DNA of 64,000 nucleotides from Spirochaetales bacterium (GTDB lineage: Bacteria > Spirochaetota > Spirochaetia > SZUA-6 > RPPD01), in NCBI GenBank assembly GCA_016934415.1, contig JAFGSW010000039.1, positions 4,224 to 68,223 of the forward strand, read 5' to 3'. Positions 15,292-41,802 of the stretch are shown one piece after another. Position 1 is the stretch's first letter. Each line of letters starts with the position of its first letter. A program made the position numbers and the translations under genes. The notes under the pieces were generated by a model. It had not been told where the DNA came from. It saw only the letters and a list, made by a program, of their open reading frames with translations, and did not search any database.

Positions 15292-15345
15292 TTGACAGAG
15301 TGCTTCTTTCCTCGTACTTTAAAAAATGAAAACCATTACCATTTA
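15292..15345 (+). promoter_or_regulatory. ttgaca promoter plus Fur-type box AAAATGAAAACCATT
   Basis: The ttgacagagtg string is shared with the fur promoter; the box matches the consensus. Confidence 0.5.
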
Positions 15346-15366
15346 CTGGAAAGAAAGGATAAAAAT

Positions 15367-15747
15367 ATGACGGAAGGCAGAGTGGCTGTTCCCAGCCTGG
15401 GGAAGGGCGGTTTGGAGTGCCGGCGTTCCGGGCATTTCGGGCATTGCGACGCGTTTACTATCGTTGATATTAAGGAAGGAAAGATCGACGGAGTGTCGGC
15501 GATTCCCAACGCGGAGCATTCCCAGGGAGGCTGCCTGGTACCGGTCGATCTCCTGGCCGCGCAGAAGGTAAACGCCTTGATCGCCGGAGGAATGGGCATG
15601 CGGCCGCTCATGGGCTTCCAGGATGCCGGGATCGACGTGTACTTCGACTCGGCGAATCCGGGCGTGAAGGAAGCCGTGGAAGCCTTATTGGCGGGATCAC
15701 TCGAGAAAATGACCGAAAACCACGTGTGCGGGGGCGGCCACCATTAA
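15367..15747 (+). CDS. NifB/NifX-family (Nitro_FeMo-Co domain) protein
   Basis: HFGHCDAFTIVD motif; candidate Fur box plus ttgaca promoter directly upstream. Confidence 0.7.
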   Translation: MTEGRVAVPSLGKGGLECRRSGHFGHCDAFTIVDIKEGKIDGVSAIPNAEHSQGGCLVPVDLLAAQKVNALIAGGMGMRPLMGFQDAGIDVYFDSANPGVKEAVEALLAGSLEKMTENHVCGGGHH

Positions 15748-15832
15748 CGATACTTGCACAAGGAGCCTCTTCGGGACCGGTACGGCTGCCGCGGGGAGAA
15801 TCCTATAAGTAATAAACTATGAGGAGTTTTCT

Positions 15833-16513
15833 ATGGACGAGCAAGCGAAGACGTACGCCATGCCGCTGATAGGCGATCCGGCCCCGGCCTTCAAGGCCAA
15901 AACGACACAGGGAGAAATCAATTTTCCCGACGATTTCAAAGGCAAATGGGTTATTCTCTTCAGCCATCCGGCCGATTTCACCCCCGTCTGCACCACCGAG
16001 TTCATGACTTTTGCGACCATGCAGGCGGATTTGAGAAAAATAAACACTGAACTTATCGGTCTTTCCATCGACAGTCTCTATGCCCACATCGCGTGGCTCA
16101 GAACCATCAAGGAGAAGATCGAATACAAGGGCATGAAAAACGTCGAAGTGAATTTCCCCTTGATTGAGGATATCAAGATGGAAGTCGCGAAAACGTACGG
16201 TATGCTCCAGCCCGGAGCCTCCACCACCCAGGCGGTACGAGCCGTTTTCATCATCGATCCGGCGGCCAAGGTGCGGGCCATTCTCTACTACCCGCTTTCT
16301 TGCGGTCGGAATATGGACGAAATCAAGCGCCTGATTCTGGCCATGCAGAAGGCGGACAAGGACAACGTGGCCACCCCGGCCAACTGGCAGCCGGGCGACG
16401 ACGTCATCATTCCGCCGCCCGGTTCCTGCGGCACGGCCAAGGAGCGGGTGGAGAAGAAGGAAGAGGGAAAATACTGCCTCGACTGGTTCATGTGTTTTAA
16501 GAAAGACAAGTAG
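15833..16513 (+). CDS. peroxiredoxin (Prx6 / 1-Cys type)
   Basis: FTPVCTTE peroxidatic Cys motif. Confidence 0.9.
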   Translation: MDEQAKTYAMPLIGDPAPAFKAKTTQGEINFPDDFKGKWVILFSHPADFTPVCTTEFMTFATMQADLRKINTELIGLSIDSLYAHIAWLRTIKEKIEYKGMKNVEVNFPLIEDIKMEVAKTYGMLQPGASTTQAVRAVFIIDPAAKVRAILYYPLSCGRNMDEIKRLILAMQKADKDNVATPANWQPGDDVIIPPPGSCGTAKERVEKKEEGKYCLDWFMCFKKDK

Positions 16514-16641
16514 TCGGTTGACGCAATGGCGGCCGCCGCGACCCCCTCGCCGGCACGGCGGCCGACCATTCGTCGGCGTTTCCGGTCCTCGGAGGAATCG
16601 GAGAACAATATGTCATCCGATGTTGTCGCTTCCGCTTAGAA

Positions 16642-17157
16642 TTATGCACCCCTGCGCGTCGCTCTTCCTATGCGATTTTTTAAAAATCGCCAGAGTCCCA
16701 GGGGAAGATTGAAGCCGGGCACTTCTTTCATATACGTTCGGTACTCATCGCCGAATTTTTCGATGCCGTCCCTGTCCGCGCCGACGATGCTTGCGATTCC
16801 CAGGATGAAGGCGGGAACGCCCAGTGCGATGACGATCCAATGCTGGGAAAGGAGGGCCAGCGCCGTCGGGATGAGCGGCATGCAGAGAAACTGCGGGTGG
16901 CGGACGATGCCGAAAATACCGCGTGTCACCAGCCGCGTGGTCTTCATGTAGCTTTCGCCCTTGTGAACGCCGCCGTACAGTTTAAGCGTCACGATGGGAA
17001 GCACTCCCAAAAGACAGCACAATGCCCACAGGCAATGCCCGAGAATCCGCAGCACTGGGATTCCGGGAACCGAAAAAAAGAACAAGAGAACGATTTGCCC
17101 CACCATCAAGAGCCCGGCGATCAAGGAGACGAGGAATGAAGTCTTTCGTCGATCCAT
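16642..17157 (-). CDS. ICMT/PEMT-family membrane methyltransferase (paralog 1)
   Basis: VRHPQFL motif in a multi-TM protein; start chosen at MDRRKTSF. Confidence 0.6.
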   Translation of the reverse strand: MDRRKTSFLVSLIAGLLMVGQIVLLFFFSVPGIPVLRILGHCLWALCCLLGVLPIVTLKLYGGVHKGESYMKTTRLVTRGIFGIVRHPQFLCMPLIPTALALLSQHWIVIALGVPAFILGIASIVGADRDGIEKFGDEYRTYMKEVPGFNLPLGLWRFLKNRIGRATRRGA

Positions 17158-17352
17158 ACGACTTCCCTTTCCGGCCGGTACGGAAACGAACACGGCGTCC
17201 CGTCCATTCGCCCCTTCCCGCAGCCGCGGCCGTCGGCTGCGGGAAGCCCCTGCGTCTCTTTTTCGCCGCCGGAGCAGCGGCGCGTATTTACCGGCGAAGG
17301 TGTGCAAGTGCGATGATCCGGAATACGTCTATATGCGGTTCCTTATCCGGTT

Positions 17353-18423
17353 TCACGGGCGGTCGGCGGCCATGCCGGCGCCTTTCAGTTCTGCATACGC
17401 TTCATTCAATAATTGCTCCGTTTCCTCCCACCCAATACACGCGTCCGTAATCGATTGTCCGTAGGTAAGCGCGGACGGATCGCCCTTCGGTTTTTGCGCC
17501 CCTTCCTTGAGATTGCTTTCGAGCATGAAGCCGACGATCGAGGTCCGGCCTTCCGCCCTCTGGCGGATGACGGAGGAAAGAACGCGCCTCTGGCGCGCCG
17601 GCTGTTTCCCCGAATTGCCGTGGCTGCAGTCGATGATGACCGCCGGGTCGACGCCGAGGTCGAAGATCGATTTCTCCGCCAGTTCGACCGTCTCTTCATG
17701 ATAGTTGGGGCCGGCCGTTCCGCCCCGCAAAATCAGGTGCGCCAGCTCATTGCCCGCCGTGGCCAGGATCGTCGTGCGGCCCTCCTCGTCTATCCCCAGG
17801 AAATGCTGCGGATGACGGGCCGATTCCATGGCGTTCAAGGCCGGCTTCAGGTCGCCGGACGTCGCGTTCTTGAATCCGACCGGCATGGAGAGACCGCTCG
17901 CCATCTCGCGGTGCTTCTGGCTCTCGGTGGTGCGCGCGCCCACGGACGCCCAGCTGATGAGGTCGGCGATGTACTGCGGAATGATCGGGTCGAGCATTTC
18001 CGTGCCGCAGGGCAGGCCGAGGGCGGTGACGTCAAGGAGGAGTTTTCTCGCCAGCCGAAGGCCGGTTTCAATGTCGAAACTTCCGTCGAGCCGGGGATCG
18101 GTGATGAGCCCCTTCCAGCCCATTACCGTGCGCGGCTTTTCGAAATACGTCCGCATGACGACGACCATCCGGTCGCGGACGCGTTCGCCCAGTGGCGCGA
18201 GCCTGAGCGCGTAATCGAGCGCCGCCTTCGGGTCGTGGATCGAGCAGGGACCGACCACGGCGAGGAGGCGGGGGTCCTCGCGGCGGAGGATGCGCGCGAT
18301 CATATCACGGCTTTCCGTCACGGTCCGGTTGCTTTTCTCGGTCATGGGCAATTCGCGTTTGAGGAGCGCGGGGGAGAGGAGCGTCCGGCTGCCGGTGATA
18401 CGGAGATCGCTGGTCGGCTTCAT
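17353..18423 (-). CDS. aroG: 3-deoxy-7-phosphoheptulonate synthase (DAHP synthase class I)
   Basis: GPCSIHDP motif and full-length family architecture. Confidence 0.9.
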   Translation of the reverse strand: MKPTSDLRITGSRTLLSPALLKRELPMTEKSNRTVTESRDMIARILRREDPRLLAVVGPCSIHDPKAALDYALRLAPLGERVRDRMVVVMRTYFEKPRTVMGWKGLITDPRLDGSFDIETGLRLARKLLLDVTALGLPCGTEMLDPIIPQYIADLISWASVGARTTESQKHREMASGLSMPVGFKNATSGDLKPALNAMESARHPQHFLGIDEEGRTTILATAGNELAHLILRGGTAGPNYHEETVELAEKSIFDLGVDPAVIIDCSHGNSGKQPARQRRVLSSVIRQRAEGRTSIVGFMLESNLKEGAQKPKGDPSALTYGQSITDACIGWEETEQLLNEAYAELKGAGMAADRP

Positions 18424-19244
18424 GAGGCGCCTCCCGGAAAGGCGGTGATCTTTTCGACGATGTCGTTCATGATTTTTCCGGCCTCCGCGTCCTTCAAGCC
18501 GTGAATGAAAGGGGTGCCCGCGTCCCCGTGCGCGGCCAGCTTCGCCTCGAGGGGTATCCGGCCCAGGAAAGGCACTCCGAAATCTGCCGCCGCCCGCTCC
18601 CCGCCGCCGGTCCCGAAGAGGTTGGTGACGTTGCCGCAGTGCGGGCAGACGAAGCCGCTCATGTTTTCGATGACGCCGATGACGGGCACCTTGAGCTGCC
18701 TGGCGAAGGAGACGGTCTTGCGCGCGTCGAGCACGGCCACGTCCTGCGGGGTGGTGACGACGATCGCTCCGGTGACGTTGGGGATGAGTTGGCAGGCGCT
18801 CAGGGGCTCGTCGCCCGTGCCGGGGGGGGAATCGATGACGAGGTAGTCGAGCTCGCCCCAGTTGACGTCGCTCAAGAATTGCTTGATGACGCCCATTTTC
18901 ATCGGTCCGCGCCAGATGATGGGGCTGTCGCGGTCTTCCATGAGCAGGGCGATGCTCATCGCCTTGAGGTTGGGGAGAACGGGGAACGGCTCCAGCCCCT
19001 CCGCCCCGCCGGGGATCGTCTCCCCTTCCACGCCGAGCATCTTGGCGATGTTGGGGCCGTGGAGGTCGATGTCCATGATCCCGACGGAAAGCCCCTTCAG
19101 GGCGAGACCGACCGCCAGGTTGATGGAGACGGTCGTTTTTCCCACGCCGCCCTTGCCGCTCAGGACGATGATCGTATGCTTGATGCGCTTCAGGGTTTTC
19201 TCAAGGCGCATGTCCTGCTCGCGTTGTTCCGTTGTTTTCTCCAT
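18420..19244 (-). CDS. apbC: Mrp/ApbC Fe-S cluster carrier ATPase
   Basis: SGKGGVGKTT Walker A and CPHC motif; start taken at MEKTTEQ. Confidence 0.85.
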   Translation of the reverse strand: MEKTTEQREQDMRLEKTLKRIKHTIIVLSGKGGVGKTTVSINLAVGLALKGLSVGIMDIDLHGPNIAKMLGVEGETIPGGAEGLEPFPVLPNLKAMSIALLMEDRDSPIIWRGPMKMGVIKQFLSDVNWGELDYLVIDSPPGTGDEPLSACQLIPNVTGAIVVTTPQDVAVLDARKTVSFARQLKVPVIGVIENMSGFVCPHCGNVTNLFGTGGGERAAADFGVPFLGRIPLEAKLAAHGDAGTPFIHGLKDAEAGKIMNDIVEKITAFPGGAS

Positions 19245-19255
19245 CCTATTCCCTT

Positions 19256-19624
19256 TCAATACCGGAGCAAGTAATCGGCGATCGCCTTGTGCAGGGCGCT
19301 CGCCGCCAGAATTGCGCAATGCCGGTGGTCCTCGGGCAGCCCGGCCAGCCCGTCGATGATCGCCTTCGGCGAGAGGCCGAGCGCCTCGGTTACGGTCCTG
19401 CCCTTGGCGAACTCCGTGGCGAACGAGCCGCAGGCGAACGTGGCCCCGCAGCCATCCGTTTGGAAGAGCGCGTCCGTGATGACGCCGTCCTCGACGACAA
19501 GATACATCTCCACCGTGTCCCCGCATAGTCCCTTGATCCAGGCGGCCCCGGTCGGGTCGTTCATCCGGCCCAGATTAACGGGCGCACGCGAATAACGTTC
19601 GTACGGGCTCGTTGTCGTTTCCAT
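19256..19624 (-). CDS. NifU/IscU-like Fe-S cluster scaffold protein
   Basis: GDTVEM..DGCGATFACGS motifs; candidate Fur box in its divergent upstream region. Confidence 0.75.
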   Translation of the reverse strand: METTTSPYERYSRAPVNLGRMNDPTGAAWIKGLCGDTVEMYLVVEDGVITDALFQTDGCGATFACGSFATEFAKGRTVTEALGLSPKAIIDGLAGLPEDHRHCAILAASALHKAIADYLLRY

Positions 19625-19685
19625 AAACCGGGATCTCCCTTCGCCTTTGGTGTTGACTCTATTCGGCGATCGTTCTAATTTAATA

Positions 19686-19706
19686 AAAATGAAAACCATT
19701 TTCAAT
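19686..19706. promoter_or_regulatory. Fur-type box AAAATGAAAACCATTTTCAAT in the divergent nifU-like / DUF1007-NicO region
   Basis: 20 of 21 positions match the reverse complement of the fur-promoter box. Confidence 0.6.
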
Positions 19707-19789
19707 ATACAGTCAGACCCCGCTTCACCGAGACGGGTCGACGATGCTTTTCGGGACGCGCGTGGCTGTCGGCGCGGGGAAGAAAAAAA

Positions 19790-20395
19790 ATGAGAACGCC
19801 GAGGCTCATCCTGGCGTGCGTCGGCTTTCTCTGCGCGTTCGCGGAGGACGCCCCGGCTCATCCGCACGTCTTTATCGAAAATTCGTTCACGTTCATGTTC
19901 GGCGGCGGACGCCTCAAGGGGATCGCGGTCACGTGGATCTTCGACGAAATGTTCAGCGCGTCGATCATCGTGGACAATGACCGTAATCGCAACGGAAAAT
20001 TCGAGGCGCGGGAAAGCAAGGCGATCGAGGAAGGCGCCTTTTCGAACCTGAAAAACTTCAATTATTTTCTTTTCATAGATGCCGGACGCGGCCGTCTGAA
20101 GATTCAGGCGGTCAGAGACTTTCATCCTGAAATACTGGGGAAGAGGCTCGTGTATCGTTTTTTCGTGCCGTTCGACGTCGACGCGGGCGCGGCGGGGAAA
20201 ACGCTTGCGGCGGGTTGCTTCGACAGCACGTATTTCTGCGACGTGACGTACGCCGCAATCGACCCGGTGACGGTCGAGGCGGACGAATTGACGAGCGTTT
20301 CCTGGGATCTCGTGAAAGACAAGAAGAACGCCTACTGGGGCGGGACGATCGTCCCGCGGGTGGTGCGACTGAAATTCAGGTTGAAGAATGAGTAG
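19790..20395 (+). CDS. DUF1007 periplasmic protein (partner of NicO transporters)
   Basis: Signal peptide with HPHVF motif; its end overlaps the NicO gene. Confidence 0.65.
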   Translation: MRTPRLILACVGFLCAFAEDAPAHPHVFIENSFTFMFGGGRLKGIAVTWIFDEMFSASIIVDNDRNRNGKFEARESKAIEEGAFSNLKNFNYFLFIDAGRGRLKIQAVRDFHPEILGKRLVYRFFVPFDVDAGAAGKTLAAGCFDSTYFCDVTYAAIDPVTVEADELTSVSWDLVKDKKNAYWGGTIVPRVVRLKFRLKNE

Positions 20396-21305
20396 AAGAA
20401 GCGCGATGGCGGCGGTATTCTTCCTCCTCGCGATTTTCGCCGCCGCCCAGGACAACCCGTTTTTCTCGGGAAGCGAACCGACCGCGAAACCGCCCGTTTC
20501 GTCCGCGTCCGGACTTTTCCAAGATATAGTCAACGGCGTTGTCGGACTGCAGCGCGACCTGAACGCCCGCTTGTCCGAGCTTTCGCGATCGGTCACGGAA
20601 GAGGGGAACGCAGGGGTCTTTTTTATCCTCCTCGCGGCGGCCTTCGGCTATGGGTTGGTACACGCGCTGGGACCGGGACACGGAAAGGTCGTGATGGCGT
20701 CGTACGCGCTGGCCAATCCCCTCAAAGCGAAGCAGGGAGTGTTGCTCGGCGCGGGGGTCGCCGTCGTTCACACGCTGTCGGCCGTGGTGTTGGTCACGGC
20801 GCTTTACCTGATTCTGAACAGTTCGTATCAGGCCTACGGCGGGATGCCGAAAAAAATCATTACGCTCGTAGGCTACGGACTTATCGCGGGAATGGGAGCG
20901 CTGTTGCTGGTGAGGGCCGTTTTTCGTCTGCGTCGTCCGGGCAGGGGAGATGCGATATCACCGCAAACGGAGGCCCCGGCGGCGGCCGGAAAAACGCGGG
21001 AGTTGGTCCTTCCCGCCCTGCTCATGGGGATGGTCCCCTGCGAGGGAGCCGTCCTCATCCTCGTTTTTTCACTTTCCATTGACGCGTTCTGGTTGGGAAT
21101 CTGTCTGTCGGCCGTCATGTCCGCCGGGATGGCGGTCACCATTTCGGTCGTGGGCTTGCTTGCCTTGGGCGCGAAAAAAGGCACGGCGGCGTTCCTGTCA
21201 AAAAGGAAAAATGCATTGCGGATATTGACGTCGCTGGTCCAGCTGTCGGGGGCCGCGGTCATCATGATGTTCGGCGCCGCGTTGTTCGCCGGCGGCCTGT
21301 GGTAA
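20388..21305 (+). CDS. nickel/cobalt transporter, NicO family
   Basis: HALGPGHGK motif in a multi-TM protein. Confidence 0.75.
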   Translation: MSRRSAMAAVFFLLAIFAAAQDNPFFSGSEPTAKPPVSSASGLFQDIVNGVVGLQRDLNARLSELSRSVTEEGNAGVFFILLAAAFGYGLVHALGPGHGKVVMASYALANPLKAKQGVLLGAGVAVVHTLSAVVLVTALYLILNSSYQAYGGMPKKIITLVGYGLIAGMGALLLVRAVFRLRRPGRGDAISPQTEAPAAAGKTRELVLPALLMGMVPCEGAVLILVFSLSIDAFWLGICLSAVMSAGMAVTISVVGLLALGAKKGTAAFLSKRKNALRILTSLVQLSGAAVIMMFGAALFAGGLW

Positions 21306-21348
21306 TATATTTTTTCGACTGCTTCAGCGAGCAGGAGGGGGGAAGGTC

Positions 21349-21690
21349 ATGCTCAACACAAATTTAAAGCATCTTATGACTGAAGAGGACGTGGCGCGGG
21401 CGATCAAAGAGCATGCGTCCGTCATGATCTGCTGCGGCCGGATGGGACCGATGTGCATCCCCGTGTACCGGGCGATGGAGAAGCTGGAAAACCGCTATCC
21501 GCGGGTGGCGTTTCGGGACATTGATTTCGATTCTCCGGCGGCGGATGGCATCAAGGCCTTGGATGAATGCGCCGCATTTATGAGCCTGCCCTTTACGGTT
21601 TACTACAAAGAGGGGAGGGTGGCGGCGGCCACGTCCGGCATTCAGTCGGAAAAGGAAATCACGGAAAGAATCGAACGCTCTTTCCAATAA
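21349..21690 (+). CDS. thioredoxin-fold protein
   Basis: Size and CGRMGPMC pattern; call is weak. Confidence 0.45.
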   Translation: MLNTNLKHLMTEEDVARAIKEHASVMICCGRMGPMCIPVYRAMEKLENRYPRVAFRDIDFDSPAADGIKALDECAAFMSLPFTVYYKEGRVAAATSGIQSEKEITERIERSFQ

Positions 21691-21823
21691 TCCGAGGAAA
21701 TCCTCAGACAAAATTCCGCGCTTCTTCGTCGTTATGTACAAAACGGGTCGGCATTGTCGCCGACGGCCGTTGCCGCCAAAGTGAATCCCGAATGAGCGCG
21801 GATGCCTGACAGCGAGGGAGAGC

Positions 21824-22699
21824 GTGATGGAAAACCGTATCAATGAAGCGACGTCGATGACCGCGGCCATGACCTGCTCGATCAGGGCGGCGTCTTTTTA
21901 TGAAAAAGATTCGTGTCTGAAATCCGATGATTTCGTCGCGCCGCTTCTTCTCCCCCGGATCATGCAGCCGATGGTAAGGTCGGGCCTCATCCGCCGGACG
22001 TTCATGCGGTTTCTGGCGCCGAAAGGAATCTATGAATACGTAATAGCCCGGACGAAATACATCGACGGAGCGCTTCAGGCCTCCTTGAACGACGGGGTCC
22101 GTCAGGTTGTCTTCTTCGGCGCCGGTTACGACACCAGGGCGATTCGGTTCCACGAATCCGGGCGTGGAACGATCTTCTATGAACTGGACTCGCCGCTTAC
22201 CCAGGAGGCTAAAATCGGGCAATTCCGGAAACGAGGGATCGTCGCGCCGCCCACGTGCCGCTTCATTCCGATCGACTTCAACCGTGAATCTCCCCAAGAA
22301 AAATTACGGGCGGCCGGATTCCATCCGGAGGAAAAATCGCTTTTCATCCTGGAGGGGGTGCTCATGTACCTGGGCGTCGAAGCCGTCGAGGAAACGCTGC
22401 GCATAATGCGGGAGCTTATGAGCCCCGGAAGCCGCGCCGTATGCGATTTCATTTATCGGTCCGTATTGCGCCGGGAAAATTTGTACTACGGCGAGGAGGG
22501 CATTTACAAGCGAGTTAATAAATACGGTGAGGCCTGGAAATTCGGGATCGAAAAATGCGATATGACTTCTTTTTTCCCCGCAAGGGGATTCCGCGTCGTC
22601 GAGATCGCCGATGCCGCTTTGCTGGAAGACAGGTTCCTGAAAGGCGAAAAACGGCATAGAATGAACGGTACCCATTGCATAGCGATGCTGGAAGGATAA
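21824..22699 (+). CDS. SAM-dependent O-methyltransferase, LCM/Ppm1-like
   Basis: VVFFGAGYDTRA motif. Confidence 0.65.
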   Translation: MMENRINEATSMTAAMTCSIRAASFYEKDSCLKSDDFVAPLLLPRIMQPMVRSGLIRRTFMRFLAPKGIYEYVIARTKYIDGALQASLNDGVRQVVFFGAGYDTRAIRFHESGRGTIFYELDSPLTQEAKIGQFRKRGIVAPPTCRFIPIDFNRESPQEKLRAAGFHPEEKSLFILEGVLMYLGVEAVEETLRIMRELMSPGSRAVCDFIYRSVLRRENLYYGEEGIYKRVNKYGEAWKFGIEKCDMTSFFPARGFRVVEIADAALLEDRFLKGEKRHRMNGTHCIAMLEG

Positions 22700-22701
22700 C
22701 C

Positions 22702-23388
22702 ATGAAAAAAACAACCGGTGGTATAGTCAAGGCGATTCGCATTGTCTTTTCCATCGCCGTCGCCGTGGCGGTGATCTTCATCCCTGCCGGCACCCTGGCC
22801 TGGCCTGAAGCCTGGATTTTGCTCGGCGCTTATTTCGTATTCGTGCTCGCCCTCGTCCTAAGAATTAAAAAACGCGATCCGGAATTGTATCAAGAACGGA
22901 CCGCCAGGCAGAAGGAAGGAAAACGCTGGGATAAAATCCTCCTCTCCGTGTATACCGTTTTTCTGCTTCTGATGCTCGTCGCCTCGGGCTTGGACGCCGT
23001 ACGCTTCAGGTTGAGCCATATACCCTTGGAAGTCAAAATCGGGGCGTTTCTTTCCTTTCTTCCCGTCGGTCTTCTCTTTTTTCTCGTGTACCGTGAAAAC
23101 ACCTTCGCCTCCAAGGTGGTGCGCGTTCAAAAGGACAGGGGACAGCGGGTGATCGATTCGGGACCGTACAAAGTCGTGCGCCATCCTATGTATGCGGCCA
23201 TCATCCTCATGATTCCGGCCGTGCCTTTGGCTTTGGGCTCGTGGTGGGCGTTGATCTTCGCGGGGCTGGTCGACATCCTTTTCGTCGTTCGCACCGCGCT
23301 TGAAGACAAAACGCTGAAAGATGAGTTGCCGGGATACATCGACTATGCGAAAAAGACAAGGTTCCGGCTTATTCCGGGCATCTGGTGA
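22702..23388 (+). CDS. isoprenylcysteine carboxyl methyltransferase family protein (paralog 2)
   Basis: VIDSGPYKVVRHPMY motif; sits 2 nt after the LCM methyltransferase stop. Confidence 0.7.
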   Translation: MKKTTGGIVKAIRIVFSIAVAVAVIFIPAGTLAWPEAWILLGAYFVFVLALVLRIKKRDPELYQERTARQKEGKRWDKILLSVYTVFLLLMLVASGLDAVRFRLSHIPLEVKIGAFLSFLPVGLLFFLVYRENTFASKVVRVQKDRGQRVIDSGPYKVVRHPMYAAIILMIPAVPLALGSWWALIFAGLVDILFVVRTALEDKTLKDELPGYIDYAKKTRFRLIPGIW

Positions 23389-23537
23389 CGGGTGAGTCTC
23401 AGGTATTCCCGACCCGGAAGACCGTTCCCCTACGCGCGTCTCAGCGTAAGGTGGACCGCGTATTGCAGTCGCAACCGATCCGAAAGGGCGCTGCCGAATT
23501 TTACGACTGATCCTCCGTTTCTACCGCCGGAACAGCT

Positions 23538-24068
23538 TCAGAGTCCCGCGGCTTGGGCTTTGGAAAAAAGCCGGCGCAGGTTCGGCAGCCATTTCCCCGT
23601 CGCGCGTTTGTAATCGAGGTAGCGCCGTCCGAAGGCTTTTTCGAGCAGCTTTTCTTCCGCGCCCGCGACGTAATTCAGGAAAACGCAGATTACGGTGATA
23701 ATCGCCAGCGCGAGCAGGGAACAGGTCAAGAAAAACAGCCCCAGATAGAGCAGGATCTCCGAAAGGTAGAGCGGATGGCGGATGTATTTGAAAAACGACT
23801 TGGTGATGACGACGGGCGGGTCGCGTCGTTCGACGAAAATGATGCGGTGGCTGATCCATGCCATGACGCCGGCCGCCACGATGAGGGCGGCGGCGATCGG
23901 AATGCGAACGGCGGCCGGAATGACGCTCGAGAGAAAAACCGAGTACTTTAAAAAAAACGAATCGATGATCCAGACGGCCAGGAATACGACGATCCCGATG
24001 AGCTGTCCGATATCGGTGAGGGCGTGCTCGCCCGCCAGATCTTTTCTGTGTTCATGCTTCTTTGCCAT
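23538..24068 (-). CDS. isoprenylcysteine carboxyl methyltransferase family protein (paralog 3)
   Basis: FFKYIRHPLYLSE motif. Confidence 0.7.
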   Translation of the reverse strand: MAKKHEHRKDLAGEHALTDIGQLIGIVVFLAVWIIDSFFLKYSVFLSSVIPAAVRIPIAAALIVAAGVMAWISHRIIFVERRDPPVVITKSFFKYIRHPLYLSEILLYLGLFFLTCSLLALAIITVICVFLNYVAGAEEKLLEKAFGRRYLDYKRATGKWLPNLRRLFSKAQAAGL

Positions 24069-24102
24069 TGCGCGCTCCTTCTGTTACAATAATATAAATA
24101 TA

Positions 24103-24123
24103 GCGAAAATGGTTGTCATTAAC
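24103..24123. promoter_or_regulatory. Fur-type box GAAAATGGTTGTCATT upstream of ABC-2 exporter, divergent from ICMT-3
   Basis: Matches the motif; lies in an AT-rich promoter region. Confidence 0.5.
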
Positions 24124-24195
24124 TTTATAGACGTTCGAAGGGGAATAAACGTCTTTTTTTTTTCTGCGGTGAGTATTTGCTGAGGCGGGACATAA

Positions 24196-25167
24196 ATGGA
24201 AAACATTGTCGAAGTGAAGAACCTCGTAAAAAGTTACGGCGATATCCGGGCGCTTGAGGGCATCGATTTTTATGTTCGCCGGGGCGAAATTTTCGGTCTG
24301 CTCGGCCCCAACGGAGCCGGCAAAACCACCACCATCAGCATTCTCACCGGGCTGTCCCGGCCGGGAGGGGGCAGCGTCACGTGCTGCGGGATGGATGCGG
24401 CGGGGCGCATGAAAAAAATCCAGGCGCGGGTCGGTATTGTTCCCGACGAGAGCAATCTGTACGACGAGCTCACCGGGTTCGAAAACCTCTGCTTCTGCGG
24501 CGCCTTGTACGGAGTAAGAAAAAAGGCGCGTGAACGGAAGGCCCGCGAGCTCATAGAGTATCTCGGGATGGGAGAATTCGCCCGCCGCCGTTATAAGTCG
24601 TATTCCAAGGGCATAAAACGCAAGCTTACCGTTGCCGCGGCGCTCGTGCACGAGCCGGAGCTCCTTTTCCTGGACGAGCCCACCACCGGTATCGACGTGG
24701 CAAGCGCGCGCACGATCAGGGAGATGATCAAGGAGTTGAACGCGCGGGGGACGACTGTGTTCCTCACGACGCACTACATCGAGGAGGCGGAACGGCTGTG
24801 CGGGCGGATCGCGTTCATCACGCGGGGCCGCATCGTCCGCGCCGCGACGATCGGCGAATTGCTCGCGGGAGCGGGAAACGAGAGCATCATCGAAATCGCC
24901 CTTGGCGCGCCGCCGGCCGACAGGGAGGCGCTGGCGGATGATATAAAAAAAATCCTGCCCGAAGCCGTCGTTTCCTTTCCCGAAAAGCTTACGGTCCGAC
25001 TCCAGGCGGGAAGAGACGTCGACCTGGGCCGACCCATCGCCTTGTTCGCCGCCCGGGGAGTGCGGGTGCGGGAGGCGAGACTCGTAAAAAAAAGCCTGGA
25101 GGACGTTTTCGTGAAAGTCACCGGCGTCGAGGCGGACGCCATGAAGGGGGAGAAGGAAAAAAAGTGA
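24196..25167 (+). CDS. ABC transporter ATP-binding protein (ABC-2 exporter type)
   Basis: GPNGAGKTT Walker A and LSGGQ-like signature; candidate Fur box upstream. Confidence 0.9.
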   Translation: MENIVEVKNLVKSYGDIRALEGIDFYVRRGEIFGLLGPNGAGKTTTISILTGLSRPGGGSVTCCGMDAAGRMKKIQARVGIVPDESNLYDELTGFENLCFCGALYGVRKKARERKARELIEYLGMGEFARRRYKSYSKGIKRKLTVAAALVHEPELLFLDEPTTGIDVASARTIREMIKELNARGTTVFLTTHYIEEAERLCGRIAFITRGRIVRAATIGELLAGAGNESIIEIALGAPPADREALADDIKKILPEAVVSFPEKLTVRLQAGRDVDLGRPIALFAARGVRVREARLVKKSLEDVFVKVTGVEADAMKGEKEKK

Positions 25168-25898
25168 AAACGGCGATCGCATTTCTGGCCATTCTGAAAA
25201 AAGACATGCGCAACTATTACCTGAAGCCGCCCAATATCAGCTGGGGAATCATTTTCCCGTTCGCCTGGATGCTCATGCTCCTTATCCGGAGCAGAGGCGG
25301 CATGGACGCGGCCGGCGTGTTTCCGGGGATCGTCGCCCTGGCCGTGATCTTCGGCACCACGTCCATGCTCTCCGTCACCATCACCTTCGAGCGGAAGGCC
25401 CGTTCCTTTGACCGCTTGCTCGCCGCGCCATTGAGCATGACCGCGCTCGTGCTGGGGAAAATCTCCGGGGCGGCGCTGTTCGGCGTCTTCAACAGCCTCG
25501 TTCCCGTCCTGGTCTGTACGCTCCTGTTCGGCTCGCCGGTGATCTCTCCCGCAGCCCTCGCCGGGGGCGTGCTCTTGCTGTCCGCGATCTCCACCCTTAT
25601 CGGTCTCTTCGTCGCCGTGTCCGTGAGCGAGGTGTTCGAGGCCCAGACGTTTTCCAATTTCTTCAGGTTCCCCATGATTTTCCTGTGCGGGCTTTTCATC
25701 CCGCTTACCGATCTGCCGATCTGGCTTCGACCGCTTTCCTACGCCCTCCCCGTCACCTACGGCGTGGATTTGCTCAGGCACGGCACCGCCGGCGCGGGGG
25801 AGTTGCCCGTCCTCCTCGACGTCTCCGTGTCGTGCGCTGCGACGGCGCTGCTCTTCGCCGGCAGCGTGCTTATGATCAGGAAGAAGTGGTTTCCGTGA
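25164..25898 (+). CDS. ABC-2 type transporter permease
   Basis: Six TM helices; start overlaps the ATPase gene. Confidence 0.75.
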   Translation: MKTAIAFLAILKKDMRNYYLKPPNISWGIIFPFAWMLMLLIRSRGGMDAAGVFPGIVALAVIFGTTSMLSVTITFERKARSFDRLLAAPLSMTALVLGKISGAALFGVFNSLVPVLVCTLLFGSPVISPAALAGGVLLLSAISTLIGLFVAVSVSEVFEAQTFSNFFRFPMIFLCGLFIPLTDLPIWLRPLSYALPVTYGVDLLRHGTAGAGELPVLLDVSVSCAATALLFAGSVLMIRKKWFP

Positions 25899-25974
25899 CG
25901 GTCCCGGACCAGGGAAATACCGATTTCCTCAATCGGTGTGACAAGCCACGTCGCACCATGATCCCGCCGGTCAA

Positions 25975-26298
25975 TCAGCGTGCGGTCGACTTTCCGGCTA
26001 ATTTTTCTTCCACCGATTGCATCTTTCCCCGCATCGACAACTTTTTATCCCGGCGTTCGTCTATCTTTATCGAAGTCACGACCCTTTTTATTTTTCCGCT
26101 CAATACCGTCTTGTGCATTTTCTCGGCCACCGCCAGCAGCTTTTTCACCGATGGGGCCTCTATCACCGTTCCCATGGGACATACCTCATAGGTGAGACCC
26201 TTTTCCCGCTGCAGCACGCGCACGGCGGCCGCCACATAACTGCTCACGGAAGCGCTTTTTGTCCCGAGGGGGACGACGCTGATTTCCATCACCGGCAT
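25975..26298 (-). CDS. MTH1187/YkoF family protein
   Basis: ISVVPLGT..YEVCPMGT motifs. Confidence 0.7.
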   Translation of the reverse strand: MPVMEISVVPLGTKSASVSSYVAAAVRVLQREKGLTYEVCPMGTVIEAPSVKKLLAVAEKMHKTVLSGKIKRVVTSIKIDERRDKKLSMRGKMQSVEEKLAGKSTAR

Positions 26299-26329
26299 AC
26301 CGCTCTCTCCTTTTTTGTTCGCTTGCTTA

Positions 26330-26548
26330 TTATGACAAATGTCTGTCTATTGTCCCGTCCGGCAACATCTCGTCCGGATGATACTCTCCCCGTTCCTCCT
26401 TTTGATAACGGACGCAACGCCGCCAGTTGCCATGGCAGTAGGCGTCGATCCATTTTCGGTTCAATTTCCCCGCGTCATAGAAATGTTTCATGGGGCAGAC
26501 TGCATACCATTTGCATTCGGGGCCCATGACGATGTGATTCATATACAT
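26330..26548 (-). CDS. small cysteine-rich protein (4 Cys; zf-like small domain)
   Basis: GPECKWYAVCPMK..CHGNWRRC pattern; partial Fur-like half-site upstream. Confidence 0.45.
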   Translation of the reverse strand: MYMNHIVMGPECKWYAVCPMKHFYDAGKLNRKWIDAYCHGNWRRCVRYQKEERGEYHPDEMLPDGTIDRHLS

Positions 26549-26805
26549 CTATCGTATTTGAAAATGTTATTGGAGACAAGGTTGGGACTGATTTTTACAG
26601 AGTTATGCAACGGTAAATTTGACAGCCTACGGCGAGCCCAAACGACAAAAATAGAGTCGTCCTCCGTTGTATAGCCCGCCGTGGTTTTTGCGGTTTCGCC
26701 TCTGGAACATCAGAAAAGAGAAAGAATGGGGAGGGAGGCAACGGCCTTGTCAGGGGATGGAATCCGGCATACAATAAATGAATCAATACAGAAAGGGAAA
26801 ACATC

Positions 26806-27114
26806 ATGCCTGAATTTAGTTACCCCTTTGCCGGAATGAGGAAAGACCGGAAGCTCACCGACTCGGAATTGATCCGCGCCGTCCGCTTCATGATTGCGGC
26901 GGAATATGAAGCCGTCCAGCTGTACATGCAGCTTGCCGAATCCACGGACAACAAACTCGCCGCCGAAGTGCTCAAGGACATCGCCGACGAGGAGCGGGTC
27001 CATGCGGGGGAATTCCTGCGCCTTCTGAAGGAGCTCGCCCCGGATGAGGAGAAATTCTACGCCGAGGGGGCGAAAGAGGTGGAAGAAGAGATTATGAAGA
27101 TGAAAAAAGGTTGA
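26806..27114 (+). CDS. ferritin-like (rubrerythrin/EncFtn-like) small protein
   Basis: AEYEAVQLY..ADEERVHAGEF, i.e. the ExxH pair of a half-ferritin. Confidence 0.6.
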   Translation: MPEFSYPFAGMRKDRKLTDSELIRAVRFMIAAEYEAVQLYMQLAESTDNKLAAEVLKDIADEERVHAGEFLRLLKELAPDEEKFYAEGAKEVEEEIMKMKKG

Positions 27115-27326
27115 AGCGGCGCCCGTGCAGATCCGGCGGAAAACGCCGCTGTCTTTCAAAAACGATTTCGTTTCCATGACCTGCTCCCCGCATCCGGCAC
27201 ACTGGCGGTCGGGACCGTGGGAGCGCGGGGAGGCGGCGACGCGCCCATGACCGTGCGGGGAAAGCAGAAGCCTGTAAAACCGTCGTTAGCCTTCGAGTAG
27301 TTTTATCCTTGCATCTGAATACATTG

Positions 27327-27941
27327 TTACGGTTTTTTTGCGTTTTTTTCTTCATTTCCCCCCGTACCGCGCCCTGCATGCGGATGGATTTCCTTCATCC
27401 CGGACTTTTTCAGAATGATATTGGCGATAGGGAGGGAGAATGCGTAGGCGAGTCTCCGGCCTTTTTTTTCTTCCGGCGTCAACAGCCCTTCCTGAAAGGA
27501 AACGACGGTATTGCAGCAGAGATTCCCGAACAGAACCGACTGGGTAAACGCCCTGATTTGCAGCGCCTTAAATGCACCATAACATCTTTCAAGTGTTTTG
27601 CAAGAAACCGCAGACGGGTTGCCTCTCGTTTCGGCCATATGCTGGGCGAATAAAACGCCTGCCGATTCGGACCGGTCGACGCGCCGTCCGACGTTTTCCA
27701 CAATGGCGGCAATCTCCTCTTGCGCTATCCCCTCCTCCAGGCCGCGGCGGGCGTGAAGATAGGAACAATAGGCGCATTGGTTCACCTGGGAAACGGCCAG
27801 CATGAGCATTGTCCTGAAGCGGGGGGAAATTGTCTCCCCCCGGGGGATTTTTCTCAACGTCGTCATTCGGCCGAAGGTTGTGAAAAAGAGAAAGAGGAAT
27901 TCCCCAAACGAAGCGAAGATGCGCAGCCGGCCCTGCTTCAT
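27327..27941 (-). CDS. carboxymuconolactone decarboxylase / AhpD-like protein
   Basis: NQCAYCSYLH motif; start is uncertain. Confidence 0.55.
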   Translation of the reverse strand: MKQGRLRIFASFGEFLFLFFTTFGRMTTLRKIPRGETISPRFRTMLMLAVSQVNQCAYCSYLHARRGLEEGIAQEEIAAIVENVGRRVDRSESAGVLFAQHMAETRGNPSAVSCKTLERCYGAFKALQIRAFTQSVLFGNLCCNTVVSFQEGLLTPEEKKGRRLAYAFSLPIANIILKKSGMKEIHPHAGRGTGGNEEKNAKKP

Positions 27942-28088
27942 GACCGCAGTGTACCACACATTTTCCGGACGGTACATCGGACGGCGCGCCGCGCCGGGCG
28001 CCAAAGTCTGGGCCGGAAACGGCAATAATTCCTCGTTTCAATTCAAACGACGGCGCGATCGGATCCGATCGAAACCGGCTTTTTTCTA

Positions 28089-28138
28089 TTGACAGAGTGT
28101 GTAAAGTGAGGTATATTGAAAATGGTTATCATTTTCAA
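28089..28138 (+). promoter_or_regulatory. fur promoter (ttgaca-N17-tatatt) overlapped by palindromic box TTGAAAATGGTTATCATTTTCAA
   Basis: 9-5-9 perfect inverted repeat overlapping the -10 element. Confidence 0.7.
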
Positions 28139-28150
28139 TAAGGAGTTCGT

Positions 28151-28612
28151 ATGCCGCATGGGCACGGACACAGGTGGGGACAGAAATTATCGGGCTGCGG
28201 GTTCAGGTTGACCGTCGGCCGCGAGGCCATTATAGACGTCCTTTCGCGCTCGGACAAGCACCTGAGCGCCGAGGATATCTTCCTTGAGCTGCACGCCGAC
28301 CACCCGGGCATTGGTTTGACGACCATCTACCGGACCCTCGAGCTCCTGGTGCAGACGGGAATCGTGGCCAAGTTCGAATTCGGCCACGGCCGGGCCAAAT
28401 ACGAGCTCACCGAGGAATACGGCAAGAAAAAGCACCACCATCACTTGTTTTGCAAAAGCTGCCAGACGATCATCGATTATTCGGATTTCATGGAAGATGA
28501 AATCACCTATATAAAGAAAACGGAAAAAGGGCTGGCGAAAAAATACGATTTTCAGATTGACGGTCACATCATAAATTTTTACGGGCTGTGCCGCGCCTGT
28601 CGGGCGAAATGA
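28151..28612 (+). CDS. fur: Fur family transcriptional regulator
   Basis: HHHHLFCKSC and GLCRAC motifs; its own promoter carries a 23-bp palindromic box. Confidence 0.85.
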   Translation: MPHGHGHRWGQKLSGCGFRLTVGREAIIDVLSRSDKHLSAEDIFLELHADHPGIGLTTIYRTLELLVQTGIVAKFEFGHGRAKYELTEEYGKKKHHHHLFCKSCQTIIDYSDFMEDEITYIKKTEKGLAKKYDFQIDGHIINFYGLCRACRAK

Positions 28613-28638
28613 AAGGGGATTTTTTTTAAGCAGAAAAT

Positions 28639-28654
28639 GAAAATGGTTATCAAT
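28639..28654 (+). promoter_or_regulatory. Fur-type box GAAAATGGTTATCAAT upstream of the DUF5320 cluster
   Basis: Matches the motif. Confidence 0.55.
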
Positions 28655-28708
28655 AGCAAAAAAAGAGCGCCCGTGAGCGGGTGAAGTTTTTTATAGAGGA
28701 GGCATGAT

Positions 28709-29110
28709 ATGCCGAGAGGAGACAGAACAGGTCCCGCCGGTTTGGGCCCGATGACGGGAAGAGCGGCGGGTTATTGCGCCGGTTATTCGGTACCGGGTTA
28801 TATGAATCCGGTACGGGGAAGAGGTTTCTTCGGAAGAGGAAGAGGCGTCGGCTTCGGCCAAGGCGGTGGTTTCGGCCGTGGCCGCGGATACAGGAACATG
28901 TACTGGGCCACCGGTTTACCGGGTTGGTCGCGTTTCGGCGGTTTTTGGCCGGCGGACGCGTGCGTGTATCCGTATGGGGCCGCGGAGCCTTCGCCCAAGC
29001 AGGAAGCCGAGGCCTTGAAAAATCAGGTCAAATACATGCAGGATTCAATGGACGCCCTGAACGAACGCATCAGGGAGCTTGAGAATTCCCAAGCGGAAAC
29101 CGAAGAATAA
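28709..29110 (+). CDS. DUF5320-like protein (Gly/Arg-rich middle, coiled-coil C-terminus)
   Basis: MPRGDRTGPAGLGPMTGRAAGYCAG N-terminus; AGAGGAGG SD upstream. Confidence 0.6.
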   Translation: MPRGDRTGPAGLGPMTGRAAGYCAGYSVPGYMNPVRGRGFFGRGRGVGFGQGGGFGRGRGYRNMYWATGLPGWSRFGGFWPADACVYPYGAAEPSPKQEAEALKNQVKYMQDSMDALNERIRELENSQAETEE

Positions 29111-29188
29111 CGCCTCTCATGAATCGGGTCTGAGCGCCGGGATGGGAAGCCGTCCGACGTTCTGGCGGGGGGGTAAAAAGGAGGAACC

Positions 29189-29591
29189 ATTGAGAGCGGC
29201 CATTTCAACCGACGGAGCGTACGTATCCGCGCATTTCGGGCGGTGCCCGAGTTTCACCCTGGTGGAAATCGAAGGCGGGCGGACGGTAAAGAAGGAAGTT
29301 ATTGCCAATCCCGGACACCATCCCGGCTACCTGCCGCAATTTTTGAGCGAGCGGGGTGTAACCTGCATTGTCGCGGGCGGCATGGGCGGCCGGGCGCAGA
29401 TGCTCTTCGACGAGCAGGGGATACGCACCGTGATGGGGGTTTCGGGCACAGTGGATGAGGCGATTACCGGGCTCTGCGCCGGAACGCTCGCCGGCGGCGA
29501 ATCCCTCTGTCGGCCGGGTGCGGGCAAGGGGTACGGGGTGGAGAAGACGGATTGCGACCACGCCGGAGACGACAGCCATCAGCATGAGTGA
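29189..29591 (+). CDS. NifB/NifX-family (Nitro_FeMo-Co) protein with Cys/His-rich tail
   Basis: TTG start after a GGAGG SD; HFGRCPSF motif. Confidence 0.6.
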
Positions 29592-29661
29592 CATCGAAAG
29601 GAAAACGGCGGGGGAGCCTGCGGGATTCGCCGGGAACGGCGCTTTCGGGAGGGGAGTCGCG

Positions 29662-30501
29662 ATGAAAAGGCGCGCGGTGGCGCTCATCGCGGGATACTGT
29701 TTTCTCCACTGTCCGCCTGCCGCGTTCGCTCAGCCGCGCGTCGCGGCGCAGCTGATGGACGACCTGACGGTCTATGAGCTGCAGAAAGACGTCCTCCTGG
29801 TAACGCACAGCTATCCCTGGCCCGGGAACTCCCTGCTGGTTCGGCTGAACAGGACGAATTGGGTATGGGCCGATACGCCCTGCACGCCCGAAGCGACCAG
29901 GCTGGTGGTCAAGTGGCTGTATATGAAATACGGCGAACGCATCAGGATCACTGAAATCAACACCGGCTTTCACATCGACAATCTGGGCGGCAATCGGGAA
30001 TTGCTGAAATGGAAGATACCGACCTACGGGTCGAGTCTGACCTGCGAGCTTTTGCGAACGAAAAGTAAAAAGACGATGGCGAAAATGATCGACCTGCTGC
30101 GCGGCCCTGAAAATGAAAAATATCGCGACGCGTATCGGTCATTCGTCTTTTCACCGCCGACGAACCGTTTCGACATTACAAAGATCCAAACTCTGCGCCT
30201 CGGTGGGAACACCGTTGAAATCTATTTTCCCGGCCCGACGCACACCTTTGACAATGTGGTCGTCTATTTCCCGGACAAGCGGGTGCTGTTCGGCACCTGC
30301 ATGGTGCTGGCGGCGGACGCGAAAAGCGCCGGCTATACGGGCGACGCCGACCTCGCGCGCTGGCCCGAGTCCCTGCGGAAGGTGGCGAAACGCTTTCCCC
30401 GCGCGGCGCTCGTCGTGCCCGGCCACGGGGAGCCCGGCGGGCCTGAATTGATCGAGCATTCGATCCGCGTCGTGGAACGGAGCCGGGAGTGTCAAGAATA
30501 A
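29662..30501 (+). CDS. secreted MBL-fold protein (degenerate metal motif)
   Basis: Signal peptide MKRRAVALIAGYC..AFAQ; FHIDNLGGN and VVPGHGEPG motifs. Confidence 0.55.
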   Translation: MKRRAVALIAGYCFLHCPPAAFAQPRVAAQLMDDLTVYELQKDVLLVTHSYPWPGNSLLVRLNRTNWVWADTPCTPEATRLVVKWLYMKYGERIRITEINTGFHIDNLGGNRELLKWKIPTYGSSLTCELLRTKSKKTMAKMIDLLRGPENEKYRDAYRSFVFSPPTNRFDITKIQTLRLGGNTVEIYFPGPTHTFDNVVVYFPDKRVLFGTCMVLAADAKSAGYTGDADLARWPESLRKVAKRFPRAALVVPGHGEPGGPELIEHSIRVVERSRECQE

Positions 30502-30562
30502 ACGCCGATCGGCGGAACGACGGGGGCGGGCCCCCGTTCAATTTATCGACAAGGAGCTCAGC

Positions 30563-30937: not shown

Positions 30938-30938
30938 A

Positions 30939-31121: not shown

Positions 31122-31124
31122 GCG

Positions 31125-31889: not shown

Positions 31890-31899
31890 TGGATCGCCC

Positions 31900-32866: not shown

Positions 32867-32897
32867 ACGGGACGAAGAGAGGGGGGAAGGAACAGGA

Positions 32898-41786: not shown

Positions 41787-41802
41787 TATAGGTATACCTA
41801 TA
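41787..41802. promoter_or_regulatory. 16-bp perfect palindrome TATAGGTATACCTATA between feoA and the DtxR/MntR gene (candidate operator)
   Basis: The sequence is its own reverse complement; it lies in an AT-rich divergent promoter region. Confidence 0.5.

Follow-up and report, generated by a model that had tools for sequence, protein, structure and literature searches.

The question raised by this locus is whether a short palindrome lying over the promoter of a Fur-family gene, and repeated at several places nearby, marks the operators of that regulator, and if so which signal the regulator senses. The DNA analyzed here (the window) is a 64-kb stretch of contig JAFGSW010000039.1 from an uncultured Spirochaetales bacterium, and the Fur-family gene, referred to below as fur, occupies 28151-28612 on the plus strand and encodes a protein of 153 amino acids. 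The initial annotation of the window proposed that Fur-type boxes recur at five promoters. We conclude that the motif sites are real and conserved and belong to a well-known type of control, of which they are an ordinary variant, and that the five sites are probably operators of the Fur-family repressor encoded at 28151-28612.

Even when one mismatch is tolerated, the core AATGGTTNTCAWT has exactly five matches in the window, at the places first reported. The copies and the boxes that contain them (A to E, with their matrix scores) are as follows.

28121-28133, plus strand: core of box A (28116-28138; perfect 9-5-9 palindrome; 36.4 bits), putative autoregulatory operator of fur
19688-19700, minus strand: core of box B (19684-19704; 36.4 bits), in a divergent promoter region
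24108-24120, plus strand: core of box C (24104-24124; 30.3 bits)
28642-28654, plus strand: core of box D (28638-28658; TGAAAATGGTTATCAATAGCA; 32.1 bits), in the 96-bp fur-to-DUF5320 spacer
15325-15337, minus strand: core of box E (15321-15341; 31.8 bits)

The chance expectation for the core is 0.27, and five matches were reached in 0 of 100 dinucleotide-preserving shuffles. All five sites are intergenic, with start codons 14-86 bp away, and four of them lie in recognizable promoter regions; the description as five promoters does not extend to box D, which is discussed below. A matrix built from the five window sites scores its own sites at 30-36 bits and the next distinct locus of the window at 16 bits; the nearby scores of 21-23 bits come from sites A and D themselves, read on the opposite strand or in an overlapping register. 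Further weak matches (12-16 bits) lie at 24191-24211 and 30108-30128. The GC content of the window is 61%, and the sites are in AT-rich intergenic DNA. Matrix matches at 54655-54779, all within an AT-rich DUF4332 gene, were dismissed as an artefact of composition. This gene (54278-54964, minus strand), markedly AT-rich for its surroundings and a source of spurious weak matches, was possibly acquired horizontally.

At fur the motif takes the form described initially, a perfect 9-5-9 palindrome at the -10 element (TTGAAAATG-GTTAT-CATTTTCAA, 28116-28138), and the copy reported at 19686-19706 is identical to it at 20 of 21 positions. The fur promoter (TTGACA-17-TATATT, 28089-28117, plus strand) scores 11/12 in a promoter scan; box A covers its last -10 bases and the expected transcription start, and ends 13 bp 5' of the fur ATG. 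A -35 context had been said to be common to the fur promoter and that of a stand-alone NifX-like gene, and the 11-mer TTGACAGAGTG is indeed restricted in the window to 28089-28099 (fur) and 15292-15302 (NifX-like gene).

A consensus, TGAAAATGGTTTTCATTATCA, was pooled from 24 sites, five from the window and 19 from the relatives described below. Read on the other strand, it shares 16 of 19 positions with the E. coli Fur box GATAATGATAATCATTATC. Against the 7-1-7 box TGAAAATnATTTTCA of delta-proteobacteria, 13 of 14 positions agree at offset 0 and 9 of 14 at offset 6. The first three bases of the half-sites are TGA in 22 of the 24 sites and CGA in the other two, the G at position 2 being invariant. 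The classical Fur box, a 19-bp GATAATGATAATCATTATC made of two overlapping 7-1-7 repeats with TGA-type half-sites, is thus recovered here. The predicted operator spans about 21 bp and reads as a pair of 7-1-7 inverted repeats that overlap, the second displaced by 6 bp from the first: TGAAAAT-G-GTTWTCA and then TGGTTWT-C-ATTWTCA. Because the consensus fits the 7-1-7 box twice, at a displacement of 6 bp already known for such pairs, the 9-5-9 palindrome reads as the outer arms of the two repeats. This is standard Fur-box architecture and no special element. In the Fur proteins that have been studied, this architecture is bound by two dimers on opposite faces of the DNA.

The operator can be compared with two known types. 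Compared with the classical box of E. coli and Bacillus subtilis (GATAATGATAATCATTATC; 7-1-7 form TGATAATnATTATCA), it likewise overlaps -10/+1 or -35, but its half-site is TGAAAAT rather than TGATAAT and its central GG is almost invariant. The delta-proteobacterial Fur box is WTGAAAATNATTTTCAW (Rodionov et al., 2004, Genome Biol 5:R90, PMC545781), and Fur sites of Desulfovibrio consist of two such boxes overlapping by 6 bp (PMC545781). Both the half-site TGAAAAT and the overlapping-box layout are common to that system and to ours, and one D. desulfuricans site, cTGAAAtTGgTTTTCAaTaTCAg, is nearly identical to the consensus. Delta-proteobacterial fur is autoregulated and feoAB is among its targets, as here in at least one relative. 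The differences are the host, an uncultured member of the Spirochaetales; the Fur subfamily, which has a distinct N-terminal extension; and the target list, since NifU/Mrp, DUF1007-NicO, NifX-like, DUF5320/ORP-like and ICMT/PEMT genes are unlisted in the delta-proteobacterial regulons (PMC545781). On sequence comparison, then, regulator and operator form a Fur system of the delta-proteobacterial box type, already known in kind. The earlier remark that the core resembles classical Fur boxes is borne out by these identities, by the adjacent FUR-family gene and by conservation in relatives.

The fur product has an HHHH motif, two CxxC pairs and a YRTL recognition helix, and homologues of it are labelled 'Spirochaetales bacterium'. 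It matches Pfam FUR (PF01475) over residues 17-144 with 103.5 bits against a cut-off of 23.1 bits. The NCBIfam subtype models rank Fur (123.6 bits) above PerR (82.1 bits) and Zur (46 bits), with NF051892, a Bacillus-type Fur, as the top match, and a search of solved structures gave the same order (Fur 95, PerR 58 and Zur 31 bits; best match Fur 9ire). The structural zinc-site cysteines C101, C104, C147 and C150 are invariant in 28 homologues. Regulatory-site ligands H37, E85, H96 and H98 are present, as are H95, H97, E117 and H139 of the second His-rich site; among homologues the HHHH motif, H37, E85, E117 and H139 are conserved. The protein resembles classical Fur in its structural Cys4 zinc site, its HHHH motif and the Arg of its recognition helix, and the solved structure closest to it is that of a Bacillus-type Fur. 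Next to fur is a CMD/AhpD-like open reading frame.

Conservation was examined in six contigs (111 kb) of Spirochaetales relatives, fetched by exact-protein look-up and scanned with the matrix from the window sites only. At 17 bits or more, 19 sites were found against 0.1 expected from shuffles that keep local composition. They lie 5' of fur, in the fur-to-DUF5320 spacer, and 5' of genes for a stand-alone NifX-like protein, PEMT/ICMT and a small ferredoxin. Of those at NifU/Mrp, the one in locus L085 separates Mrp from feoA, and the one in locus L086 separates NifU-Mrp from a glutaredoxin gene; gene order is Mrp-...-DAHP synthase in the former, with the box beside Mrp, and NifU-Mrp-...-DAHP synthase in the latter, with the box beside NifU. 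In both loci DUF1007-NicO directly follows feoB (feoAB in L085). In L085 a box lies 5' of feoA-feoB-DUF1007-NicO, directly upstream of fur; L086 has the same feoB-DUF1007-NicO order, but no strong box directly 5' of feoB.

Outside the Spirochaetales, fur orthologues with 45-56% identity, among the matches listed, all have a box between the -10 element and the ribosome-binding site. These orthologues come from WOR-3, Omnitrophota, Atribacterota, Clostridia, Planctomycetota, Aminicenantes and Marinimicrobia (at least five other phyla), and in Marinimicrobia the box grades into the classical AATGATAATCATTATCA. The order fur, box, DUF5320, two NifX-like genes and two MinD/ferredoxin ATPase genes is also found in WOR-3, Omnitrophota and Atribacterota, with one box 5' and one 3' of fur, and Planctomycetota keep at least the beginning of this order, with fur, the box and DUF5320. 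In metagenomes, an exact match to the 21-mer TGAAAATGGTTTTCAWTWTCA was found at no fewer than 120 loci, and genes starting within 250 bp of the box were counted. Among the matches listed, these encode Fur (at least 42), DUF5320 (at least 13), TonB-dependent receptors (at least 10), ZnuA-family binding proteins and DinB_2 (at least 8 each), DUF2804 (at least 6), QueF divergent from fur (at least 4), imelysin (at least 2), and FeoB, ferritin and Rrf2 (at least 1 each). The 21-mer therefore appears to be a general Fur operator in many environmental lineages.

One metagenome bin, assembly GCA_016928415.1, has three genes of this Fur subfamily, on L083, L085 and L087, that are 62-70% identical to the window protein. 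Each lies among box-carrying genes: ICMT, VIT1 and NifX-like genes on L083, feoAB-DUF1007-NicO and an ORP-like cluster on L085, and ferredoxin, DUF5320 and ArsP_2 genes on L087. The three genes reflect either true paralogy or a mixed bin.

The genes that the boxes face were assigned by Pfam and NCBIfam searches, which agreed with the initial labels NifU_N, DUF1007, NicO, ICMT/PEMT, ABC/ABC-2, FUR, DUF5320 and Nitro_FeMo-Co; the label 'thioredoxin' for 21349-21690 was not confirmed, as there was no Pfam match even at E<=1. Box B overlaps the -35 element (TTGAAA) of a minus-strand promoter and lies 2 nt past the -10 hexamer of the plus-strand promoter TTGACT-17-TAATTT. The first three genes below are read leftward from it and the last three rightward.

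19256-19624, minus strand: NifU_N scaffold (Pfam), in front of the Mrp/ApbC gene
18420 to about 19240, minus strand: Mrp/ApbC Fe-S carrier (Pfam, NCBIfam, tblastn)
17353-18423, minus strand: DAHP synthase (Pfam/NCBIfam)
19790-20395, plus strand: DUF1007 protein (Pfam)
20388-21305, plus strand: NicO-family permease (Pfam)
21349-21690, plus strand: 113-amino acid protein with no family match

The mechanical 368-amino acid open reading frame at 18420-19526 (minus strand) over-extends the N-terminus of Mrp, its upstream part overlapping the NifU_N gene in another frame; the Mrp start is probably near 19240.

Box C overlaps the -35 hexamer, ATGACA, in a minus-strand promoter (24119-24091). A plus-strand promoter (24062-24090) that faces the ABC genes has its -10 element 14 bp upstream of the box.

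23538-24068, minus strand: ICMT/PEMT-family membrane methyltransferase (Pfam)
24196-25167 and 25164-25898, plus strand: ABC ATPase and ABC-2 permease (Pfam; DrrA/DrrB-like by NCBIfam)

This site had been placed between an ABC-2 exporter and an ICMT gene. The methyltransferase is upheld as a target by boxes 5' of orthologous PEMT/ICMT genes in L081 (5321-5341) and L083 (9230-9250). The exporter is a possible second target by promoter arrangement only, and relatives give it no support. The window encodes three ICMT/PEMT/DUF1295-type membrane methyltransferases (16642-17307, minus strand; 22675-23388, plus strand; 23538-24068, minus strand), and genes of this type recur beside fur and its targets (L081, 4784-5278; L083, 9235-9936; L086, 1-280). 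In L083 a single box stands ahead of ICMT and fur, which apparently make up one operon.

Box E immediately follows its promoter, and the L083 orthologue of the gene that it precedes (67% identical) has the same layout, TTGACA-17-TACATT-box.

15292-15320, plus strand: promoter TTGACA-17-TACTTT
15367-15747, plus strand: stand-alone Nitro_FeMo-Co (NifX/orange-protein-like) protein (Pfam, NCBIfam)
15833-16513, plus strand: peroxiredoxin (Pfam/NCBIfam), downstream of the NifX-like gene, with which it may be co-transcribed

Box D stands before a gene cluster (28709-35763, plus strand) whose synteny was compared with L081, L085, L086 and L088 and with L001, L002 and L004.

28709-29110, plus strand: DUF5320 protein (Pfam)
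within 29079-29591, plus strand: Nitro_FeMo-Co protein (Pfam, NCBIfam)
within 29455-30501, plus strand: metallo-beta-lactamase (Pfam/NCBIfam)
30563-30937, plus strand: Nitro_FeMo-Co protein (Pfam/NCBIfam)
31125-31889, plus strand: metallo-beta-lactamase (Pfam/NCBIfam)
31900-32577, plus strand: methyltransferase (Pfam/NCBIfam)
32898-34814, plus strand: fused double MinD/ParA ATPase (two CbiA/ParA domains, four Fer4 motifs)
34804-35763, plus strand: radical SAM protein (Pfam/NCBIfam)

A box D variant, ...TCAATATCA, occupies the same place in L081, L085, L086, L088 and L089, and a second box lies 3' of fur in L001-L004 and L006. The cluster is ORP-like in combining Orp3/Orp4-type MinD ATPases, with two [4Fe-4S] motifs each, and Orp8-type Nitro_FeMo-Co proteins. 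Compared with the ORP complex of D. vulgaris (Orp3, Orp4, Orp5, Orp8 and Orp9/MrpORP; PMC6345978, PMC8359166), the MinD-like ATPases are here fused, the Nitro_FeMo-Co proteins are Orp8-like, and a nearby gene with the same type of box encodes an Mrp/NBP35 carrier. Unlike MrpORP of D. vulgaris, this Mrp is not fused to a C-terminal Nitro_FeMo-Co domain; it scores 360.6 against 450 bits and covers only positions 1-249 of the 365 of the profile. The NifX/orange-protein-like family also includes the thioferrate-binding IssA (PMC6345978). Regulation differs as well: the ORP operons of D. vulgaris are sigma-54-dependent and controlled by a redox-sensing activator, OrpR (PMC6345978, PMC8359166), whereas a Fur box takes this place here and across several phyla. 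No sigma-54 element (TGGCAC-N5-TTGCW-like) was found near 28.6-28.7 kb, window-wide matches being at or below chance, and no sigma-54 activator gene was seen among the annotated neighbors. A search for riboswitches and small RNAs over 15-36 kb gave nothing close to the gathering threshold.

A partial site had also been noted at 26557-26572, upstream of a small Cys-rich gene. It amounts to one 9-mer arm with a matrix score under 10 bits, which is not distinguishable from chance, and we treat it as a weak lead, not a finding. The gene (26548-26330, minus strand; 72 amino acids, no Pfam match) is followed by a Thiamine_BP/MTH1187 gene, the pair spanning 26548-25975 (minus strand), with only this half-site 5' of it; in L087 a Thiamine_BP gene lies within a box-controlled ferredoxin operon. 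Nearby, a rubrerythrin/EncFtn-like small ferritin-fold protein (26806-27114, plus strand) has its own promoter (TTGTCA-17-TACAAT, 26747-26775) and no Fur box; it strengthens the iron theme of the neighborhood.

What the sequence data establish is the motif and its statistical significance, where it lies on promoters, its retention at orthologous genes and the family of the regulator; that this protein binds the sites, which way it regulates and which metal it senses are inferred. When iron is sufficient, the metal-loaded form, most probably Fe(II)-Fur, would bind the operators. At fur, the NifX-like gene and DUF1007-NicO these overlap or immediately follow the -10 element, at NifU-Mrp and ICMT they overlap the -35 element, and a repressor bound there would therefore exclude RNA polymerase, blocking it at fur and four other units. 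When iron is scarce, the metal would be lost, the repressor would leave, and the genes would be released: fur itself, the NifU scaffold and Mrp/ApbC carrier, the DUF1007-NicO metal uptake pair, the NifX/orange-protein-like proteins, the ORP-like cluster (DUF5320, MinD-ferredoxin ATPase and radical SAM genes) and the ICMT/PEMT membrane methyltransferase. A precedent is the suf Fe-S assembly operon of E. coli, which is directly repressed by Fur. By analogy, Fe-S scaffold and carrier genes here may be under direct Fur repression and induced when iron is scarce, although the genes differ (NifU_N, Mrp and NifX-like/ORP-like here, SufABCDSE there) and the present system is known from sequence alone.

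Which metal is sensed had been considered not decidable from sequence. It is partly decidable: iron is favored as the effector, and we hold this with reasonable confidence, given the feoAB and TonB-receptor targets elsewhere, the Fur-type recognition helix and the best matches of the protein to Fur. Iron-acquisition genes with a box are feoA-feoB-DUF1007-NicO in L085 and, in metagenomes, genes for TonB-dependent receptors, imelysin and FeoB. In B. subtilis, the half-site distinguishes the family members, TGA marking Fur, TTA PerR and TCG Zur. A TGA half-site together with Arg in the recognition helix (YRTL) presumably marks Fur, not PerR or Zur.

Three other explanations were weighed. That the repeats are non-regulatory, arising from chance similarity of AT-rich promoters or from a small dispersed repeat, has something to build on in that AT-rich intergenic DNA in a 61% GC genome inflates weak matrix matches, as in the AT-rich gene at 54.3-55.0 kb. 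The shuffling results in the window and in the relatives speak against it, as does the position of the sites before orthologous genes, which is conserved across phyla despite differing flanks; with these conservation data the idea is effectively refuted, and we give it almost no weight. A regulon for uptake of another metal (Zn, Ni, Co or Mn) through DUF1007-NicO is improbable. It would account for the NicO-family permease and its DUF1007 partner among the targets, for the exact boxes 5' of ZnuA-family binding proteins in metagenomes, and for a Fur protein that falls below the Fur equivalog cut-offs. The boxed units of the window and the Spirochaetales relatives, though, include no ZnuA-type uptake genes or other typical Zur-regulon marker (the full window was not scanned for such genes), and the Zur models score far lower (46 against a 167-bit NCBIfam cut-off; 31 bits in the PDB search). 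The half-site is neither of the Zur type (TCGTAAT) nor of the Nur type, a separate NikR for nickel lies beside fur in L081, DUF1007-NicO directly follows feoB in two relatives, and the remaining targets are Fe-S scaffolds and carriers.

A peroxide or redox sensor acting on Fur-type boxes, PerR-like through metal-catalyzed oxidation of its Fe(II) site and governing oxidative-damage and Fe-S repair in a strict anaerobe, is about as unlikely. Its best argument is residue 109, five residues after the second Cys, which is Asp where canonical Fur has Glu and is mostly Asp in the subfamily. Asp at this position is the PerR state, and a Glu-to-Asp change renders Fur peroxide-sensitive. Yet the residue varies between Asp, Glu and Asn within one orthologous group that keeps box and synteny throughout, the position equivalent to Asp85 of PerR is Glu, and the full HHHH motif, E117 and H139 are as in Fur. 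Neither the PerR box (TTATAATnATTATAA) nor the recognition-helix Asn typical of PerR was found: the half-sites are TGA or CGA, not TTA, and the helix is YRTL with Arg. The PerR models score below the Fur models (82.1 against their own cut-off of 180 bits). The neighborhood offers such a sensor a peroxiredoxin after the box-controlled NifX-like gene, which is a neighbor not conserved in L083, and the CMD/AhpD-like open reading frame beside fur. The control of D. vulgaris ORP operons by the redox sensor OrpR (PMC8359166) and an apparently different regulator for the feoAB of the window also fit it.

Reading the five sites as operators of an iron-responsive Fur has its own difficulties. The protein is below every NCBIfam Fur equivalog cut-off (123.6 against 220 bits for NF051892; 83.9 against 146 for PRK09462), and its last regulatory ligand position is Asp109, where the aligned Fur structures have Glu; in both it departs from classical Fur. 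Several targets are Fe-S-rich proteins, whose induction under iron scarcity is not intuitive. There is no Fur-type box at the window's own feoAB, which lies beside a different regulator and a different palindrome.

41771-39134, minus strand: feoA-feoB, divergent from the DtxR/MntR-family gene
41874-42320, plus strand: DtxR/MntR-family regulator gene
41787-41802: perfect 16-bp palindrome TATAGGTATACCTATA, in the divergent region between the two

The palindrome lies just 3' of a TATATAATA element and is probably a second, separate metal-dependent operator, predicted to control ferrous iron uptake. Because this feoAB has no Fur box and stands beside the DtxR/MntR-family regulator, iron uptake here would be at least partly under another regulator.

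Box D adds two further points of the same kind: the promoter scan detects no recognizable sigma-70 promoter at the site, and a terminator-like hairpin follows it.

28668-28693, plus strand: hairpin and U-run between box D and the DUF5320 ribosome-binding site (-12.5 kcal/mol, z -2.4)

With its flanking A-run and U-run, the hairpin resembles a bidirectional terminator. A comparable hairpin is present in L081 (about 10503-10523), and three other relatives are without one; candidate roles are an attenuator, the fur terminator or a 5' stem. Transcription of DUF5320 may start from a weak internal promoter, or may come from fur readthrough, in which case box D could be a roadblock or second operator. 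Both the window (28620-28627) and the spacers of L001-L006, L011, L081 and L085-L089 have a run of 6-9 T some 8-14 nt 5' of the second box, and the run is conserved across phyla. In the window it was considered as a terminator directly after fur and rejected (no terminator fold, z +1.25); it may be a promoter UP-like element.

The mildly new point, on present sequence comparisons, is the apparent Fur control of an ORP-like gene cluster. A literature search, incomplete and made without regulon databases, returned no paper on Fur control of DUF5320 or ORP-like clusters or on this regulon. The fur/box/DUF5320/NifX-like/MinD-ferredoxin module is conserved from Spirochaetota to WOR-3, Omnitrophota and Atribacterota, and three contigs of one assembly carry the subfamily; these observations are the basis for a tentative proposal, which we consider somewhat doubtful, that the subfamily is a dedicated regulator anciently linked to ORP-like metallocluster machinery. 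If this were true, the ORP complex would be an iron-starvation- or oxidation-induced system for Fe-S or thioferrate handling in many anaerobes. The Asp109 variant might in addition make the sensor peroxide-labile, and so merge Fur-type DNA recognition with PerR-type sensing.

The general understanding of Fur regulation is unchanged by these results. They provide an operator model and a first regulon for the Fur of uncultured anaerobic Spirochaetales, and since the same 21-mer is found at Fur orthologues of many environmental phyla, the model should be usable for the annotation of metagenomes. The more useful by-product is the link of Fur to DUF5320/NifX-like/MinD-ferredoxin (ORP-like) clusters, whose proteins are without established function; that these genes, like NifU and Mrp, would answer to a repressor of the iron type suggests a role for them in iron-sulfur handling under iron stress.

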